DNA of 32,000 nucleotides, taken from contig OY780959.1 of the NCBI GenBank assembly GCA_963675915.1, positions 480,001 through 512,000 on the forward strand. Direction: 5' to 3'. The translations under genes were made by a program, and so were the position numbers. The notes under the pieces were generated by a model. It was not told the DNA's origin. It made no database searches and worked only from the letters and a program-made list of their open reading frames with translations. This document shows, piece by piece, positions 2,585 through 11,538 of this stretch; the stretch's first letter is position 1; every line of letters starts with the position of its first letter. Source of the DNA: Coprobacillaceae bacterium (GTDB lineage: Bacteria; Bacillota_I; Bacilli_A; Erysipelotrichales; Coprobacillaceae).

Positions 2585-2618
2585 AGACACCAAATGAAAA
2601 TTTGGTGTCTATTTTTTT
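2585..2618. terminator. Bidirectional intrinsic terminator between convergent nrdG and fur
   Basis: Hairpin AGACACCAAA (2585-2594) / TTTGGTGTCT (2601-2610) with a 6-nt loop, an A-run upstream and a T-run at 2612-2618. The fur stop codon lies in the 3' arm. Confidence 0.8.
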
Positions 2619-3049
2619 GCCCGGCAATCTTGGCAAAGACCGTAAAATTTGGTTTCATGATCGCTGACTTGAAAGCCGTAGTTTTCCAGCAGCATTCTTT
2701 CAATCGAATCCATCAGATCTTCCTTGACTTCAATCACTTTGTTGCAGTTGGTGCAAATCAGGTGATGGTGGCGATGGGTTTTGGAACGGTGGCCGACCTC
2801 GTAGCGGACGAACCCGTCATCAAGATTGAGCCGGTCGATGATATTCAGGTCGCAAAGCAGTTTGACATTGCGATACACCGTCGCCAGTCCGATTTCGGGA
2901 TGTTTTTTGGTGATGATCCGGTGAAGTTCTTCGGTGGTCAGATGGCGATTCTGGTTTTCGAGCATCGTCTCAATAATGATTTTGCGCTGGTTGGTTACTT
3001 TGTAGCCTTTTTCTTTGAGTGATTGGTAAAAATAATTATAATCGATCAT
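2609..3049 (-). CDS. fur: Fur-family metalloregulator (Fur/PerR/Zur subtype not resolvable)
   Basis: 146 aa with an N-terminal winged-HTH-like region, HRHHHLICTNC and CQDC metal-site motifs, and a GGAAAGG RBS. It is divergent from feoAB, whose promoters carry Fur boxes. Confidence 0.88.
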   Translation of the reverse strand: MIDYNYFYQSLKEKGYKVTNQRKIIIETMLENQNRHLTTEELHRIITKKHPEIGLATVYRNVKLLCDLNIIDRLNLDDGFVRYEVGHRSKTHRHHHLICTNCNKVIEVKEDLMDSIERMLLENYGFQVSDHETKFYGLCQDCRAKK

Positions 3050-3240: not shown

Positions 3241-3289
3241 TTGACAGCAGTGCTTCTTTTTGATAATATCTATTTGATAATGAATCTCA
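3241..3289 (+). promoter_or_regulatory. feoA promoter overlapped by Fur-box hexamer array
   Basis: TTGACA (3241-3246), a 17-bp spacer and TG-n-TAATAT (3261-3269). GATAAT-type hexamers sit at 3262-3267 and 3276-3281. TGATAATGAATCTCA (3275-3289) matches the 7-1-7 Fur box TGATAATnATTATCA at 12/14 defined positions. Confidence 0.7.
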
Positions 3290-3336
3290 TTACCGAACAG
3301 TTTGACCGGAATATCCGATCCAAAGGAGTGAATGAA

Positions 3337-5741: not shown

Positions 5742-5879
5742 ATGGGAGATTTGATTGTAATCTTGGTTTTGGGAGCAATTGTGGCTCTGGCGGTGAGCAA
5801 ACTGATCCGTGATAAAAAGCGGGGTAAGACCTGTTCGGGGTGTTCGTCGTGTCATTTGAGTACCAAAAGCCAAAGATAA
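5742..5879 (+). CDS. FeoB-associated Cys-rich small membrane protein (45 aa; below ORF-track cutoff)
   Basis: My own translation is MGDLIVILVLGAIVALAVSKLIRDKKRGKTCSGCSSCHLSTKSQR: one TM helix, a basic patch and a C-x2-C-x2-C tail. The RBS AAAGGGG lies 12 nt after the feoB stop. This layout is typical of the small Cys-rich ORF found after Firmicute feoB. Confidence 0.65.
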   Translation: MGDLIVILVLGAIVALAVSKLIRDKKRGKTCSGCSSCHLSTKSQR

Positions 5880-5989: not shown

Positions 5990-6017
5990 GAACAGGCTTT
6001 GTTGAAAAGATATCTAT

Positions 6018-6093
6018 GGCCCGTTGGAGAAACGGTTAACTCACATGCCTTTCACGCATGCATTCACGGGTTCGAATCCCGTACGGGTCACCA
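6018..6093 (+). tRNA. tRNA-Glu (anticodon UUC)
   Basis: The acceptor stem GGCCCGT/ACGGGTC pairs, with one G-U. The anticodon stem is CATGC/GCATG with loop CTTTCAC. GGTTCGAATCC forms the T-loop and CCA is encoded. Confidence 0.93.
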
Positions 6094-6101
6094 ATTTAAT
6101 C

Positions 6102-6177
6102 GGGGGTTTAGCTCAGTTGGGAGAGCATCTGCCTTACAAGCAGAGGGTCAGCGGTTCGAGCCCGTTAACCCCCACCA
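6102..6177 (+). tRNA. tRNA-Val (anticodon UAC)
   Basis: GGGGGTT/AACCCCC acceptor stem, TAGCTCAGTTGGGAGAGC D-arm, anticodon loop CTTACAA, GGTTCGAGCCC T-arm, and CCA encoded. Confidence 0.93.
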
Positions 6178-6180
6178 TTT

Positions 6181-6256
6181 GACCCGCTAGCTCAGTTGGT
6201 AGAGCATCTGACTTTTAATCAGAGGGTCAGGCGTTCGAGTCGCCTGCGGGTCACCA
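6181..6256 (+). tRNA. tRNA-Lys (anticodon UUU)
   Basis: GACCCGC/GCGGGTC acceptor stem, TAGCTCAGTTGGTAGAGC D-arm, anticodon loop CTTTTAA, and CCA encoded. Confidence 0.93.
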
Positions 6257-6266
6257 TTTGCAAGCC

Positions 6267-6294
6267 AACCATGATGAAAATCATGGTTTTTTTT
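6267..6294 (+). terminator. Terminator of tRNA operon
   Basis: AACCATGA (6267-6274) / TCATGGTT (6281-6288) hairpin followed by a T8 run. Confidence 0.8.
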
Positions 6295-6301
6295 ATAAAT
6301 T

Positions 6302-6326
6302 AAAAAAGCGCATCAGCGCTTTTTTT
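6302..6326 (-). terminator. Bidirectional terminator serving rubredoxin
   Basis: AAAAAAGCGC-ATCA-GCGCTTTTTTT sits 7 nt beyond the rubredoxin stop. Confidence 0.75.
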
Positions 6327-6332
6327 GCAATC

Positions 6333-6497
6333 CTATTCTTCAACTAAAGAGAATGATTCTTTTCCTACACCACATAAAGGGCATACAAAATCTTCTGGCA
6401 AATCTTCCCATTTTGTTCCTGGTGCGTATCCGTTGTCTACATCACCTTGTTCTTCGTCGTAGATCCAACCGCAAACGTCACATACATATTGAGCCAT
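6333..6497 (-). CDS. Rubredoxin
   Basis: MAQYVCDVCGWIYDEE...DFVCPLCGVGKESF carries two CxxCG knuckles. I chose the ATG at 6497, where AAAGGAG lies 7 nt upstream, over the GTG at 6515. Confidence 0.93.
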   Translation of the reverse strand: MAQYVCDVCGWIYDEEQGDVDNGYAPGTKWEDLPEDFVCPLCGVGKESFSLVEE

Positions 6498-6569
6498 ATT
6501 CAAATCTCCTTTCACGATTATAATGAAATTATATCATATTCATTATTTTTTGTCTCTTGATTTGCACCA

Positions 6570-6582
6570 TAATAATATCATT
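6570..6582. repeat. Left copy of 13-bp flanking direct repeat TAATAATATCATT
   Basis: An identical 13-mer recurs at 8283-8295. Each copy is separated from the IS30-type terminal inverted repeat by 2 nt. Confidence 0.7.
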
Positions 6583-6584
6583 AT

Positions 6585-6607
6585 TTAATTGTAATTTGAA
6601 ATTCCAC
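6585..6607 (+). repeat. IS30-family left terminal inverted repeat
   Basis: TTAATTGTAATTTGAAATTCCAC compared with the reverse complement of 8258-8280, TTAATTGAAAACTGAAGTTCCAC. Confidence 0.8.
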
Positions 6608-6728
6608 CCCAGTATATTTTAGGGGTGGAATTAATTTATACAAAACTCACATGGAACTTAACCTTACAAATATGAAGCTGTATAATTTAAGTATAGATTT
6701 CCCTGAACCATTGAAGGGAGTGTTTCTG

Positions 6729-8030
6729 ATGAGAAACAAACATTTACTTCTAGATGATCGCAAGATCATTGAGAATTCTCTTAATAGCGGTTGTTCTTTT
6801 AAAGCCATTGGTATTCAACTTGGCAAGGACTGCACTACCATATCTAAAGAGGTAAGGCGTAATTTCACAATTAAAAATACTGGCAGGTTTGGCTATGGTT
6901 TCAACGACTGCATTAATCGATATGATTGTTCCGAAAACTTCGCTTGTCAAACTTGCAATCGACGAAGAAAAATTAAGTGCAAATTCTGTGGGTTATGTGT
7001 CACTCAATGTTCAAAATACCAAAGAGAATCCTGCCCGACGTTGTTGAAAGCACCGTATGTCTGCAATAGCTGCGATAGCAAACACAAATGCCCATTGTCA
7101 AAGCATTACTATTTTAGCGAATCAGCTCAGAAAAAGCATGATCTTAGATTAAGTGAATCAAGATCCGGATTTATTATTGATGAAGCTCAAATTGAACGAT
7201 TGAACTCGATTCTCGGTGATCTTGTAAAAAACAAGCATCAGTCCATCCATCACGTTTTCATTAATCATAAAGATGAACTGATGGTTAGCGAAAAAACTCT
7301 GTACAATTTGGTTGATGCCTGTATTTTAAATATCCGTAACATTGATCTTACTCGAAAAGTCAAGTTTGCACCTAGAAGGAAGAAATCCAAGCAATACAAG
7401 GTTGACAAAAAATGCCTTGAAGGTAGGACCTATGAAGATTATCAGAGTTTCATTGAACAGCACCCTAGTGTCGCCGTAGTTGAAATGGACAGTGTCGAAG
7501 GAACCAAGGGTGGCGCCTGCTTGCTTACCCTCCACTTCAACAATTCTTCTTTCATGATCGCCATAAAACGCGATTTTAACGATTCGGCCTCAGTTACAAA
7601 CTATTTCAATCATATCTATGAGGTGCTGGGTCATGATCAGTTCAAAAAATTGTTTCCGATAATTTTGACAGACAATGGGTCGGAATTTTCAAATCCTGCC
7701 GCTATTGAATTCAATGACAAAGGTGAAAGAAGAACCTACATTTTCTACTGTCATCCATCAGCGCCTGAAGAAAAAGGTGAATGTGAGAACAATCATAGGT
7801 TCATTAGATATTTCGTCCCCAAGGGCAAATCCTGGGATGAATACAAGCAAAAAGACATCAACTTAATGATGTCTCACATTAATTCTTATGCACGAAAGTC
7901 TTTGAATGATAAACCACCATATTTATTATTCACGACACTATACTCGATTGAAGCAGCTACAAAATTAGATGTTTCATACATAAGACCGGATGATATCACT
8001 TTATCACGATTATTGATATCAAATAAATAA
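6729..8030 (+). CDS. IS30-family DDE transposase with Cys-rich insert
   Basis: N-terminal HTH (DDRKIIENSLNSGCSFKAIGIQLGKDCTTISKEVRRN), a Cys-rich block, and DDE signature segments VEMDSVEG, ILTDNGSEF and ECENNHRFIRYFVPKG. I chose the ATG at 6729 (RBS AAGGGAG) over the ORF-track start at 6651. Confidence 0.9.
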   Translation: MRNKHLLLDDRKIIENSLNSGCSFKAIGIQLGKDCTTISKEVRRNFTIKNTGRFGYGFNDCINRYDCSENFACQTCNRRRKIKCKFCGLCVTQCSKYQRESCPTLLKAPYVCNSCDSKHKCPLSKHYYFSESAQKKHDLRLSESRSGFIIDEAQIERLNSILGDLVKNKHQSIHHVFINHKDELMVSEKTLYNLVDACILNIRNIDLTRKVKFAPRRKKSKQYKVDKKCLEGRTYEDYQSFIEQHPSVAVVEMDSVEGTKGGACLLTLHFNNSSFMIAIKRDFNDSASVTNYFNHIYEVLGHDQFKKLFPIILTDNGSEFSNPAAIEFNDKGERRTYIFYCHPSAPEEKGECENNHRFIRYFVPKGKSWDEYKQKDINLMMSHINSYARKSLNDKPPYLLFTTLYSIEAATKLDVSYIRPDDITLSRLLISNK

Positions 8031-8257
8031 AGAATCTATCCAGGGAAATCAAACAAACTTGATAACACAAGGGTGGAATTTCGCAATTCAAAAAAAATTC
8101 GAAAAATCACACTGATTTTTAGTGCGCCCAAAAATCATTCAATTCTTATTTACTAATTCAATTATATCTATATATTGGTAAAAATAATAGATATAATTCG
8201 AAATATTCGGATATCAATTTTCAAACAAATACTAAGAGTGGAAGTTAATCAAACAAA

Positions 8258-8280
8258 GTGGAACTTCAGTTTTCAATTAA
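8258..8280 (-). repeat. IS30-family right terminal inverted repeat
   Basis: GTGGAACTTCAGTTTTCAATTAA is the reverse complement partner of 6585-6607. Confidence 0.8.
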
Positions 8281-8282
8281 CC

Positions 8283-8295
8283 TAATAATATCATT
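8283..8295. repeat. Right copy of 13-bp flanking direct repeat TAATAATATCATT
   Basis: Identical to 6570-6582. Confidence 0.7.
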
Positions 8296-8350
8296 TTGTG
8301 AAAAAAATTTATGCCCAAAACAGTCTTGATGCGCTGATGGGAGATAATTG

Positions 8351-8450
8351 GCCAAAAGAAAAAAGAGCGTTTGGGGGTTGCGCTCTTTTAAAGTCTATGG
8401 GCAATGTTACTGTTAGAGGAACATCAAGGCTGATTCATTACCCGCTTTAT
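8351..8450 (-). ncRNA. Candidate small regulatory RNA (about 100 nt, unclassified)
   Basis: It lies between a near-consensus minus-strand promoter (8457-8485) and a strong intrinsic terminator (stem 8389-8381/8369-8361 plus a U-tract). There is no plausible ORF. The predicted 5' stem-loop exposes CCUCU and the terminator loop is CAACCCCCAAA. Confidence 0.5.
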
Positions 8451-8456
8451 GTTTAT

Positions 8457-8485
8457 ATTATATTACTAAAAAAAATTAATTTCAA
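8457..8485 (-). promoter_or_regulatory. Near-consensus sigma-A promoter of the candidate sRNA
   Basis: On the minus strand, TTGAAA (8485-8480), a 17-bp spacer and TATAAT (8462-8457). Confidence 0.65.
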
Positions 8486-8654
8486 GAAGAATGTGTATAA
8501 TACCACAATATTAACCATAAAAATTGTAATCGGTTACAAATAATTCACCAATTTTTGTTTTTGGGTTGGAATTTTTTGACAATCTGAGTTAAGTTGTTAA
8601 AAAACATTCAATTTATCGTCCAAATTTGGTAACATGGAGATAAGGAGAAATTTT

Positions 8655-9455
8655 ATGAAAGAGATAAAAATGGTATTATGCGATTTGGACGGGACACTGC
8701 TCAATTCGCAGGGGAAAGTAAGTGAACCGACTATTGCCAAAATCAGGGAACTCCGCGCCAAGGGTATCATGTTCGGTCTGGCAACCGGACGTGATGTCGA
8801 TGTCTGCGAACTCTTGTACGAGAGTTGGGGGCTTGATGGACTGGTCGATATCATGATGGGAATCAATGGAGCGCACATAGTTGACTACATCAAAGAAGAA
8901 GAACGTTTTTTCAATTATACGCCCGGAGAGGAATTCAAAAAGGTGATTGACCACTTCCAGGGACTTCCAGTCAACTATGCCATTTCTCATGATGGCATGC
9001 TCAAGGTGGCTTATGAACATGAATTCAATGCCGATTTCCAACGAATCGAACAGACTTTGGTCAGGGTCTATGACTATGAAAAATTGCTTGACGACAGTCA
9101 TGCCAAGATTCATGTCATTTTCCGGCCGGAGTATCTGGACCTTGTTTCATCCCGGGCCAAGCAATTCGCTGATGAAAAACTCAAGGCGGTCTGTACCGGT
9201 TCAATCATGTGGGAGGTCTTCAACAAGGATATTTCCAAAGCCAACGGTATCCGCCATCTGGCTGCATCTCATGATCTTGATGTTTCCAATATCCTGGTCT
9301 TTGGTGATGGCGACAATGATTTTGAAATGATTATGGAAGCCGGTATCGGTGTGGCGATGGCCAATGCTTCCCAAAATGTCTTGAATATTGCTGACTACAC
9401 CACCGCTGATAATGACAGTGACGGGATAGCGGCGTTTATTGAAGAGCATTTCTAG
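8655..9455 (+). CDS. Cof-type HAD-IIB family hydrolase (sugar-phosphatase-like)
   Basis: HAD motif I is DLDGTLL, motif II is ATGR, and motif IV is GDGDND. The cap region is of the Cof subtype. I chose the ATG at 8655, 7 nt after AAGGAG. Confidence 0.88.
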   Translation: MKEIKMVLCDLDGTLLNSQGKVSEPTIAKIRELRAKGIMFGLATGRDVDVCELLYESWGLDGLVDIMMGINGAHIVDYIKEEERFFNYTPGEEFKKVIDHFQGLPVNYAISHDGMLKVAYEHEFNADFQRIEQTLVRVYDYEKLLDDSHAKIHVIFRPEYLDLVSSRAKQFADEKLKAVCTGSIMWEVFNKDISKANGIRHLAASHDLDVSNILVFGDGDNDFEMIMEAGIGVAMANASQNVLNIADYTTADNDSDGIAAFIEEHF

Positions 9456-9461
9456 CTTGTT

Positions 9462-9485
9462 AAAAGAGTGCAGAGCACTCTTTTT
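9462..9485 (+). terminator. Terminator of HAD hydrolase gene
   Basis: AGAGTGC-AGA-GCACTCT hairpin followed by T5. Confidence 0.75.
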
Positions 9486-9491
9486 ACTTGT

Positions 9492-9517
9492 AAAAAAACA
9501 GGACCGATGGGTCCTGT
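9492..9517 (-). terminator. Terminator of the 424-aa minus-strand gene
   Basis: ACAGGACC-GATG-GGTCCTGT hairpin followed by U7 when read on the minus strand. Confidence 0.8.
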
Positions 9518-9526
9518 TTGGTTTCA

Positions 9527-10801
9527 TTAAAGATCATCCTTGAATGCTTCGTAAAGATTGGTAATCAACTGTTTTAGTTTTTCGTCATTGACATCGAAAT
9601 TGTTCGAGCGGAAATTGTTGGCGAGATTCATCATATCCATCATTGACAGATTTCCGGAACTCATGATTTTCTTGGTGAGTCCGTCATAACCGTATTTATG
9701 GATCAGTTTGCTCATCAACTCCTGGGCTTTATCGCTGTCAAAGCCACCTTGACTAAACGGATTGGTGGTCAAGTCGGTCAAATCGAAGCCGGTGTTTTTG
9801 ATATCGATATTGTAGCGCATCAGCGGCAACAGAATGTTTTTGACATTGTCATCATTGACTTCGATAACCGGGACGCTGCCGATAGTGTTGATCTTTTCGA
9901 GAGTCAGTTTTCTGATTTGATGGACCAGATCACTAAAGCTATTATAGGTCAGTTCTTTTTTGTCGATGATGTTTTCATAAATTAGATTCAGGACCACTTG
10001 GTTGTCTTTATCGCTTTCAATGGCGATGGCAACTTGGAGTTTTCCGGGGATGTAATTGAAATTGTCGACAATGACATCTTCATAGAAATAGTTGATTTGG
10101 TGGCCGGCGATTGTTTCAAGGTTCAGATGGCTTTGATATTTGGCCATTTCATTGATGGTGTCGGCCATAAGGCTCATCGCTTCTATCGAATCTATTTCCA
10201 AGACTTCGCCGAGATTGAACTCCGAGATATCGATGTAATCGTCCTCGACATCGTACAAGAGATTCAGGCACGTTTTAAAAACGCTGTCACCTTGGGAGTT
10301 GAGGGCCAGGGCGAAATCCTCGATATTCTTGAAAATGCAGATTTCATAACTGCCATCTTCTTTATTGTAATAGAAATAGTTGTCCCCGTGTTTGATGGCA
10401 TAGGTGCCATAAAAGTTGTCAATTGAGCGTTTGAAGCTGTTTTCCACTGCACGGGCATCACTTTTTGACAGGCTAGTTGGCAGCAGGAAGTTTTGACGGA
10501 GATTGCGACTTAGCTTTTCATCATCGCTTCTTGGATAAAGATTTGACGAGATTGTAGCGCTAATCACCGTAATATCAAACAGATCGCTGCCATAGCTGTA
10601 ACTGAAATTATTGGAAACCTCGTTGATTTTTCGTGACGGGGTTTGATTGGAATGGATTTCTTTGTTATCATCTATGAAGTGATACGGCTGATTATAATCA
10701 AGTTGGAATAAATACTGGATTGTATAGTGCAGCTGTTCAAGGGTGCAACTGGCTGGTATTTGCAGTTGGCTGTTCCTTACTTTCAAGTTGTATATTTGCA
10801 T
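9527..10801 (-). CDS. Uncharacterised acidic 424-aa protein, N-terminus resembling the pRiA4b ORF-3 / MM3350-like domain
   Basis: It has a strong RBS (AGGGGG) and its own terminator. The N-terminal IYNLKVRN...IPASCTLEQLHYTIQYLFQLDYNQPYHF follows the Y-x-LKV ... TLxxLHxxIQxxF ... HxF pattern of that family. I recognise nothing in the rest of the protein. Confidence 0.55.
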   Translation of the reverse strand: MQIYNLKVRNSQLQIPASCTLEQLHYTIQYLFQLDYNQPYHFIDDNKEIHSNQTPSRKINEVSNNFSYSYGSDLFDITVISATISSNLYPRSDDEKLSRNLRQNFLLPTSLSKSDARAVENSFKRSIDNFYGTYAIKHGDNYFYYNKEDGSYEICIFKNIEDFALALNSQGDSVFKTCLNLLYDVEDDYIDISEFNLGEVLEIDSIEAMSLMADTINEMAKYQSHLNLETIAGHQINYFYEDVIVDNFNYIPGKLQVAIAIESDKDNQVVLNLIYENIIDKKELTYNSFSDLVHQIRKLTLEKINTIGSVPVIEVNDDNVKNILLPLMRYNIDIKNTGFDLTDLTTNPFSQGGFDSDKAQELMSKLIHKYGYDGLTKKIMSSGNLSMMDMMNLANNFRSNNFDVNDEKLKQLITNLYEAFKDDL

Positions 10802-10887
10802 AATTATTCCCCCTTTTTTTGCAATTCTACACCATTTGAATGCAATCTACAATGATTATTTGGCAAATAAAAAAATCAGGAGAAAAT

Positions 10888-11538
10888 ATGACAAGACAAT
10901 ACGAAAAACAGGTGCTCAGCTACTGCATCAACGAGCCCGATTATCTCTTTGAAGAAGCGTTTTATTACCGTCTTAAAGTTGAGGACGACTCGGCGGTGAC
11001 GATCTATCACGGAACTGATATTGTATTTGTCACCAGCACTGATCCGGTAGCTTCCATCAATGCCAGGCGCCAGTTGCTTGCTGATGCGATTTTTGTCGGG
11101 ACGGAGGTAATTGCCCAATTCCAGAAACTTGAAGCTCTCAAGACCGGTCTTAAGGTTTTGCGCTACCAGCCTCGCCCGACAGACGAGGTTAGCTGCTATT
11201 ATTTTAAAACGGAAACATCGCAGGCCCTGGACAATCAGCTTGATTATATTGTCAATCTCGAGTTGATTGACATGTCCAAAAGCTTTGTCATGTCGGGGAA
11301 GTTCACCGAGATATCCCGTGGTGATCTATACCGGGTGATCAGGAACCACCAGGGGCAGGTGCTTTCGGCAGTCTCCCAAAAATGTGATTATGTGGTGATC
11401 GGGTCTCAAAAATCGGCTGGATGGAAGTTTGGTGATTATGGTACCAAGATCAACAAAGCCTTGGAAATCAACCGCAATGGCGGGCGGATTTTGTTTGTGA
11501 GTGAAAGTCAGTTTATTGACTATCTCAAAAGGGACTAG
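10888..11538 (+). CDS. BRCT-domain protein with unknown N-terminal domain
   Basis: The C-terminal FVMSGKFTEISRGDLYRVIRNHQGQVLSAVSQKCDYVVIG...GGRILFVSESQFIDYL fits the bacterial BRCT pattern seen in the LigA C-terminus. I chose the ATG at 10888 (RBS AGGAGA) over 10840. Confidence 0.65.
   Translation: MTRQYEKQVLSYCINEPDYLFEEAFYYRLKVEDDSAVTIYHGTDIVFVTSTDPVASINARRQLLADAIFVGTEVIAQFQKLEALKTGLKVLRYQPRPTDEVSCYYFKTETSQALDNQLDYIVNLELIDMSKSFVMSGKFTEISRGDLYRVIRNHQGQVLSAVSQKCDYVVIGSQKSAGWKFGDYGTKINKALEINRNGGRILFVSESQFIDYLKRD

Follow-up and report, generated by a model that had tools for sequence, protein, structure and literature searches.

A minus-strand unit at positions 8485-8352 of the window, i.e. 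of the whole 32,000-nt stretch of Coprobacillaceae DNA analysed here, is with high probability a real and functional non-coding RNA gene, and very probably a previously undescribed small regulatory RNA gene. The main argument for this view is one of conservation, since a unit of about 100 bases that is carried near-unchanged beside genes diverged to saturation is very probably a real sRNA gene. As a joint explanation of the available data we favour, with moderate confidence, an independent gene for a non-coding RNA of ~98 nt that would act on ribosome-binding sites as a small RNA with C-rich loops.

The signals that delimit the unit are all read on the minus strand. Sequence reading and a promoter scan agree on a -35 hexamer TTGAAA (8480..8485) and a -10 hexamer TATAAT (8457..8462) separated by a 17-nt spacer, which bears out the promoter that an earlier note on this DNA had placed at 8485-8480 and 8462-8457. 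This promoter is also the top consensus match (11/12) in the 5 kb scanned (6000-11000). The predicted transcript of ~98-100 nt, as delimited by alignment and by a covariance model built from six sequences (CM R1), occupies 8352..8451, starting at ~8451-8450 within ACAUAAAGC, 6-7 nt past the -10 hexamer, and ending in the U-run. Its first paired element is a stem, P1, made up of a 5' arm GGGUAAUG (DNA GGGTAATG; 8436..8443), with a pairing probability of ~1 in every variant, and a 3' arm CAUUGCCC (DNA CATTGCCC; 8399..8406) that forms one G-U pair with it. P1 closes an internal loop AAUCAGCCUUGAUGUUCCUCUAACAGUAA (8407..8435), a putative seed region that contains GCCU at 8430-8427 and CCUCU at 8419-8415. 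Both the coordinates of P1, including its single G-U pair, and those of CCUCU agree with the earlier description when checked on the minus strand.

The terminator hairpin (8361..8389), identified by sequence reading and folding, consists of a 9-bp stem with arms AAAAGAGCG (8389-8381) and CGCTCTTTT (8369-8361) and an 11-nt loop CAACCCCCAAA (8380-8370) that presents CCCCC at 8377-8373, and it runs into the U-tract UUUUUUCUUUU (8354..8364), assigned by sequence reading and alignment. The stem and loop first proposed stand at these coordinates; of the U-tract, the first four U also make up the 3' end of the stem and had been counted twice, a small matter. Our terminator scan missed the hairpin because its rule admits loops of 3-8 nt and the loop here is 11 nt long. 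On the plus-strand side the hairpin is followed by only four T, as against at least six U on the minus side, and termination should therefore be stronger on the minus strand.

Every relative that could be retrieved carries the unit, in five sequence variants besides that of the window. These relatives are MAG, ENA and Logan contigs of a Coprobacillaceae/Erysipelotrichaceae clade of uncultured gut-type Firmicutes. The HAD protein encoded next to the unit has a cluster mate with >90% identity in a second genome and homologues with ~66-70% identity in Coprobacillaceae/Erysipelotrichaceae MAGs. When window positions 8097-8660 are compared by blastn with the relatives' loci, the sole match is 8358-8463, at ~90%, and it lies directly after the tpx stop codon. 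CM R1 recovers the window copy at 8352-8454 (105 bits, E=2e-21) and exactly one strong match per related locus, always in the same place and at 105-128 bits: eleven loci score ~125 bits (L001, L002, L003, L004, L006, L007, L031, L032, L033, L037 and L038), and the window and L035 score 105 bits. Conservation and synteny in relatives, which the earlier note had set as a check on its own proposal, were thus both found.

Beyond this clade, CM R1 yields no strong match in unrelated tpx loci or in chance 18-mer matches. A scan for an 18-nt core in one genome per species, in which the window's own species is absent from the representatives, returns only two known relatives with one copy each; its other 21 matches are due to chance and all fail CM R1. 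The unit is single-copy in that no second exact 18-nt core occurs in the two scanned species-representative genomes. Loop-anchored and P1-anchored scans of JGI metagenomes give no matches, a viral scan gives a single chance match that fails CM R1, and blastn against plasmid and phage collections gives nothing. Following tpx homologues outward leads into other phyla, where the RNA is absent. By these searches, the unit's family is a narrow one, confined to a small Coprobacillaceae/Erysipelotrichaceae clade.

The strength of this conservation is best appreciated against the neutral level. Between the window and the tpx-bearing relatives, identity amounts to 86% in the RNA body, versus 70% in the HAD coding DNA, 76-79% in the rubredoxin coding sequence, 58% in the promoter region (hexamers only), ~50% in the remaining intergenic region and 34-42%, i.e. 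saturation, at the 4-fold synonymous sites of HAD, rubredoxin and accC. The RNA body also holds a run of 45 nt without any change in the six aligned sequences, and the invariant block of the alignment (A1) spans 8452-8356, covering the unit from its predicted start as far as the U-run. Upstream of it, TATAAT is invariant in all six aligned sequences, the relatives have TTGAAT, TTGTAT or TTGAAA aligned with the -35 hexamer, and both the hexamers and their 17-nt spacing are retained while the spacer sequence itself is unrelated. The aligned variants thus reveal a transcript-shaped block under evidently strong purifying selection. Its limits, together with the hexamers and spacing that have been kept, are the signature of a transcribed and selected RNA, and not of chance signals.

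It is hence scarcely credible that the unit is a chance juxtaposition without function, or that it encodes a very small protein. Promoter-like sites are certainly abundant in AT-rich genomes (20 were found in the scanned 5 kb, versus 14.7 expected), and the reading ATG AAT CAG CCT TGA (MNQP-stop), which the earlier note had correctly given as the only ATG between promoter and terminator, is invariant in the alignment. Nonetheless, this four-codon ORF lacks an SD at a usable distance, and the combination of 86% identity and a 45-nt invariant run with saturated neutral sites means that promoter and terminator have not come together by chance; conservation already refutes that notion. The aligned relatives contain no conserved ORF within the unit on either strand. 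The plus-strand ORF at 8298-8543, which had been suspected of being spurious, is indeed so, since its frame is disrupted in relatives by an indel of 1 nt or by a stop, and plus-strand ORFs in general are not kept in frame.

At the level of structure, RNAfold predicts P1 and the terminator as robust and stable features (-19.8 kcal/mol). The 8 bp of P1 close a loop of ~30 nt that is mostly unpaired in the predicted ensemble and whose first 27 nt are identical across all variants. Predicted unpaired probabilities, considering all variants, are 0.79-0.93 for CCUCU and 1.0 for CCCCC, and GCCU is likewise predicted to be unpaired (p within 0.8-1.0). The earlier note had drawn CCUCU in a 5-nt loop closed by UGUU/AACA; the exposure of the motif holds in our predictions, but its mini-hairpin is marginal and specific to the window. 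The two inner mini-hairpins of the P1 loop are both thermodynamically marginal in the ensemble, and in relatives one additional A leads to an inner mini-hairpin of 3 bp with a 6-nt loop. The relatives' terminator has a 12-bp stem, a 5-nt CCCCC loop and six U, and the terminator variants include one compensatory change, from C-G to U-A.

Two columns of P1 alternate between G-U and A-U among variants, and these switches fit a minus-strand RNA only, because a plus-strand RNA would have C-A mismatches in their place. A covariation test on the six distinct sequences detects one compensatory pair and is not significant, the observed score being reached by 40 of 500 shuffles, since six distinct sequences hold too little variation for such a test. 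As a model, the fold (P1 and the terminator, with the fine structure of the 5' half inferred) is compatible with the data but unproven. Folding energies of the minus and plus strands are about equal and therefore provide no means of choosing between them; it is the conserved promoter, the longer U-tract and the G-U/A-U columns of P1 that point to the minus strand as the RNA strand.

The genomic neighbourhood of the unit provides a second line of argument. The window runs from nrdD, nrdG, a Fur-family gene (minus strand), feoA, feoB and tRNAs for Glu, Val and Lys to a rubredoxin gene (minus strand), an IS30-family element, the unit (minus strand) and a Cof-type HAD hydrolase gene (plus strand), and from there to a gene for a 424-aa hypothetical protein (minus strand), a BRCT-domain protein gene, bioY and acc/fab genes. 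In this lineage, fur-feoAB are located 3-5 kb from the unit. Directly after feoB there is an ORF for a 45-aa Cys-rich membrane peptide (5742-5879, plus strand) with no NCBIfam match, similar to small proteins associated with FeoB. Although the longest ORF of the HAD gene opens at 8634, the ATG at 8655 is where the database protein P0001 (266 aa) and every homologue begin.

The next gene downstream on the unit's own strand in the window is that of rubredoxin (6333..6497, minus strand), which has its own promoter, and between this promoter and the sRNA terminator sits the IS30-family insertion, of relevance here as context only (1700 bp; 6583..8282, plus strand; transposase matching NF033563). 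The insertion is bordered by an unusually long target duplication of 13 bp, TAATAATATCATT, at 6570-6582 and 8283-8295, and an inverted repeat reported by a repeat finder at 8071-8096 corresponds to an extra internal copy of the IS end, ~190 bp inside the right end. The right end itself is fixed at 8282 by this duplication together with the corresponding empty site of a sister genome (L035), and lies 69 bp from position 8351, in good agreement with the distance of about 70 bp given before. This IS-free sister genome carries an identical unit in an uninterrupted site, in the same fur-feoAB-tRNA-rubredoxin order as the window and likewise with tpx absent. The notion of an IS-derived promoter or passenger is ruled out by the unit in the IS-free genome and by the target duplication that places the IS end at 8282.

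In the tpx-bearing relatives the gene order is fprA, a 62-aa ORF, nrdD, nrdG, rubredoxin (minus strand), tpx (plus strand), the unit and HAD (plus strand). The order upstream of rubredoxin thus differs, with fprA, the 62-aa ORF and nrdDG directly adjoining it in these relatives and fur-feoAB and the tRNAs in the window. All tpx-bearing relatives (HAD ~70% identical) have tpx between rubredoxin and the unit, and no remnant of the gene is detectable in the window or L035 (spans compared: window 6515-8633, L001 5068-6000, L035 5557-6000). A tpx pseudogene in the window was considered and rejected, since tblastn with the relatives' Tpx gives a non-significant match with stop codons; the lineage of L035 is simply one without tpx. 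The unit hence occurs in two contexts, convergent with tpx in the relatives and ~135 nt upstream of rubredoxin where tpx is absent, and this, together with its presence in an IS-free genome, implies that it was neither made by the IS nor depends on tpx.

These two contexts also bear on whether the unit might be a cis element, be it a bidirectional terminator shared with tpx, a 3'-UTR or antisense element of tpx, or a leader or attenuator of rubredoxin in the window lineage. The hairpin of the relatives begins 11 nt past the tpx stop codon, with an A-tract and a T-tract at its sides. A transcript that reads through the sRNA terminator would run antisense to tpx, and in L035, as in the window, rubredoxin starts ~135 nt downstream of the terminator and on the unit's strand. 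Yet unit and promoter are intact in genomes without tpx, the terminator is a strong one (12-bp stem and six U in the relatives), and the G-U pairs of P1 do not suit a plus-strand RNA such as a tpx 3'-UTR. As for rubredoxin, genomes with tpx have a whole opposite-strand gene between it and the unit, and the gene keeps its own promoter in both lineages, L035 included. A cis role is therefore unlikely. The unit is free-standing, as the earlier note had envisaged: the relatives' copy forms a convergent pair with tpx and a divergent one with the HAD gene, which leaves it no same-strand downstream gene to lead, the next downstream feature being tpx, on the opposite strand, and no Rfam riboswitch matches it.

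Conservation of the block could also, in principle, operate on DNA, if the block was an operator or served the divergent HAD-hydrolase promoter as an upstream element; it belongs to the intergenic region that precedes the HAD gene, and a cre/LacI-type palindrome is found nearby (TGTAATCGGTTACA at 8525-8538; TGTAAAATATTACA in relatives). We deem this very improbable. The block is asymmetric, is ~100 bp long and begins >170 bp from the HAD start, the sequence proximal to HAD being only ~50% identical; its limits coincide with a promoter-to-terminator transcript, and its substitutions keep RNA pairing, all of which speaks against a DNA element. The 14-bp palindrome (plus strand in the window) precedes the HAD start by ~120 nt and is also upstream of the sRNA -35 hexamer, and its counterpart in relatives lies 8 nt upstream of that hexamer (5887-5900 in L001, L002 and L006; 1138-1151 in L007). 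It is absent from the rubredoxin and tpx promoters, and it could control either of the divergent genes.

With regard to other regulators, neither a Fur or PerR box nor a CiaR repeat is found at the sRNA promoter, and the promoters of the six variants contain no Fur-box-like sequence except for a partial half-site in some relatives. The feoA promoter carries TGATAATGAATCTCATTA at 3274-3292, which agrees at 15 of 19 positions with the 19-bp Fur consensus, and a second TTGATAAT repeat occurs within the same promoter region (3255-3292, plus strand). These Fur-box-like sequences fit the divergent Fur-family gene at 2609-3049. An AT-rich dyad, TTATAAT-GAA-ATTATAT (6519-6535, plus strand), overlaps the -10 region of rubredoxin and appears in the sister genome (L035, 5585-5601 region) as a perfect 7-1-7 palindrome, TATAATT-G-AATTATA. 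The dyad could serve as an operator of PerR/Fur type.

If the unit is taken as an RNA gene, the question becomes how the RNA might work, and its anatomy, inference though this is, prompts the following proposal. A constitutive-looking sigma-A promoter would drive synthesis of the ~98-nt candidate RNA, and the intrinsic terminator would end it. The RNA would comprise a short 5' tail, P1, the ~30-nt invariant loop with GCCU and UUCCUCU, a short linker and the terminator with CCCCC. Acting in trans, its exposed C/U-rich stretches could then pair with mRNAs at G-rich ribosome-binding regions, and this pairing would block translation or alter mRNA decay. We put forward this mode of action, i.e. pairing of C-rich loops with ribosome-binding sites, as a tentative one that may well prove incorrect. 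It should be borne in mind that CCUCU is an imperfect anti-SD sequence, as its partner has to be AGAGG, or else GGAGG with a G-U pair.

Target scans in the 32-kb window and in ~13-kb related loci, based on duplex energies and on exact complementary 9-mers, performed no better than shuffled controls. One lead recurs, the ribosome-binding site of the neighbouring 420-424-aa hypothetical protein, which ranks first among start regions in L002, L006 and L007 and second in L035 through a duplex of 13 bp, UUUGGAGGGAUAU with AUGUUCCUCUAAA. This lead may reflect only a strong G-rich SD, and L002, L006 and L007 are closely related and not independent. The 424-aa protein of the window (9527-10801, minus strand) is conserved clade-wide and is assigned to no family, its N-terminus giving only a PRiA4_ORF3 match below threshold; among local sequences, its G-rich ribosome-binding site complements the sRNA loop best.

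The invariant run of 45 nt is longer than a typical seed and hints at a further constraint, e.g. a protein partner or tertiary structure. It is for this reason, namely that the invariant core exceeds what a seed needs, that real weight attaches to a different reading of the same minus-strand RNA, improbable as we hold it to be: the 45-nt core would not base-pair with mRNAs but form a protein- or ligand-binding domain, for instance to trap an RNA-binding protein in the manner of a sponge or decoy, or as an orphan aptamer with a terminator. Complete identity of the run across lineages whose synonymous sites are saturated, the enclosure of a defined domain by P1 and the lack of a convincing local mRNA target all agree with such a role. 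Against it, folding predicts little structure in the loop that P1 encloses, and the RNA has no repeated GGA-type protein-binding motifs and matches no Rfam riboswitch or protein-binding RNA family; on sequence reading no alternative antiterminator pairing is evident, and the relatives have no same-strand downstream gene to control.

The neighbourhood of the unit, in turn, raises a possible link to genes of redox and iron metabolism (rubredoxin; in the relatives tpx, fprA and nrdDG; in the window fur-feoAB). Carried further, the same elements could be construed as the founding member of an Erysipelotrichales-specific class of trans-acting sensor RNAs, with a structured 45-nt core that binds a protein or small molecule, set in an oxygen/iron defence island (rubredoxin, tpx, fprA, nrdDG and fur-feoAB) and constituting an independent functional analogue of RoxS/IsrR in strict anaerobes. 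We give this scenario little credence, and retain the small RNA with C-rich loops as our explanation.

The clade harbouring the unit is known only from metagenome assemblies, and no regulatory RNA is identifiable for this lineage, as nothing in Rfam 15 matches. In this setting the locus is a clean candidate by comparative evidence, being single-copy, sharply bounded, present in two genomic contexts and placed beside oxidative-stress and iron genes. If expressed, it would offer an entry point to post-transcriptional control in the strictly anaerobic Erysipelotrichales, and would add one more independent instance to the Firmicute sRNAs built on C-rich loops. A search of the literature on sRNAs in Erysipelotrichaceae gave, among the papers listed, none that mentions the family.

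When set against known systems, the unit shows the traits of an intergenic, trans-encoded sRNA, namely a conserved promoter, an intrinsic terminator, no conserved ORF and above-neutral conservation limited to the transcript. The RsaE/RoxS family (RF01820, Bacillales) displays a motif pattern of repeated UCCC/CCCC. Like its members, the unit is a free-standing promoter-to-terminator gene of ~100 nt in a redox-gene neighbourhood, with exposed C-rich motifs (the unpaired CCUCU and CCCCC described above), including one near the terminator; it differs from them in having UUCCUCU and CCCCC instead of repeated UCCC/CCCC, in showing no Rex-type box and in its confinement to a small Coprobacillaceae/Erysipelotrichaceae clade. 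The Rfam check suggested by the earlier note, run at gathering score on the whole window and at E<=10 on 8000-8700 and on 5700-5950 of L001, gave no family overlapping the unit. The unit is therefore neither RsaE nor a member of another curated family, and RF01820 in particular matches neither the window nor the L001 version even at E<=10, which accords with the earlier view that it does not resemble RsaE. RsaE is reported to recognise its targets by way of G-rich motifs (PMC6158497), and the C-rich stretches of the unit could likewise pair with G-rich ribosome-binding sites.

The CiaR-dependent csRNAs of streptococci carry sequences complementary to SD sequences and start codons, and the CiaR repeat, NTTAAG-N5-TTTAAG, is located 10 nt upstream of the -10 hexamer (PMC3091779). 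The unit shares with them the layout of a short free-standing sRNA that ends in a terminator and contains SD-complementary sequence, but no variant has NTTAAG-N5-TTTAAG in its promoter, no Rfam family matches and the bacterial order is a different one. Staphylococcal sRNAs, IsrR among them, pair with ribosome-binding sites through C-rich regions, and the partners of IsrR and FsrA are mRNAs for iron proteins (PMC11257911). To IsrR (S596/Tsr25) and FsrA the unit is alike in its C-rich regions and in its setting, adjoining rubredoxin and, in the window lineage, within a few kb of fur-feoAB; these are, however, Fur-controlled iron-sparing RNAs, and the unit has no Fur box at its promoter, whereas feoA in the window has one, and no sequence similarity to either. 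In its proposed way of working the unit comes closest to RsaE/RoxS, IsrR or the csRNAs, but it falls outside each of these systems, and a new sRNA family restricted to this lineage is the most fitting label for it. Such families are common and to be expected, so that the candidate overturns nothing known.
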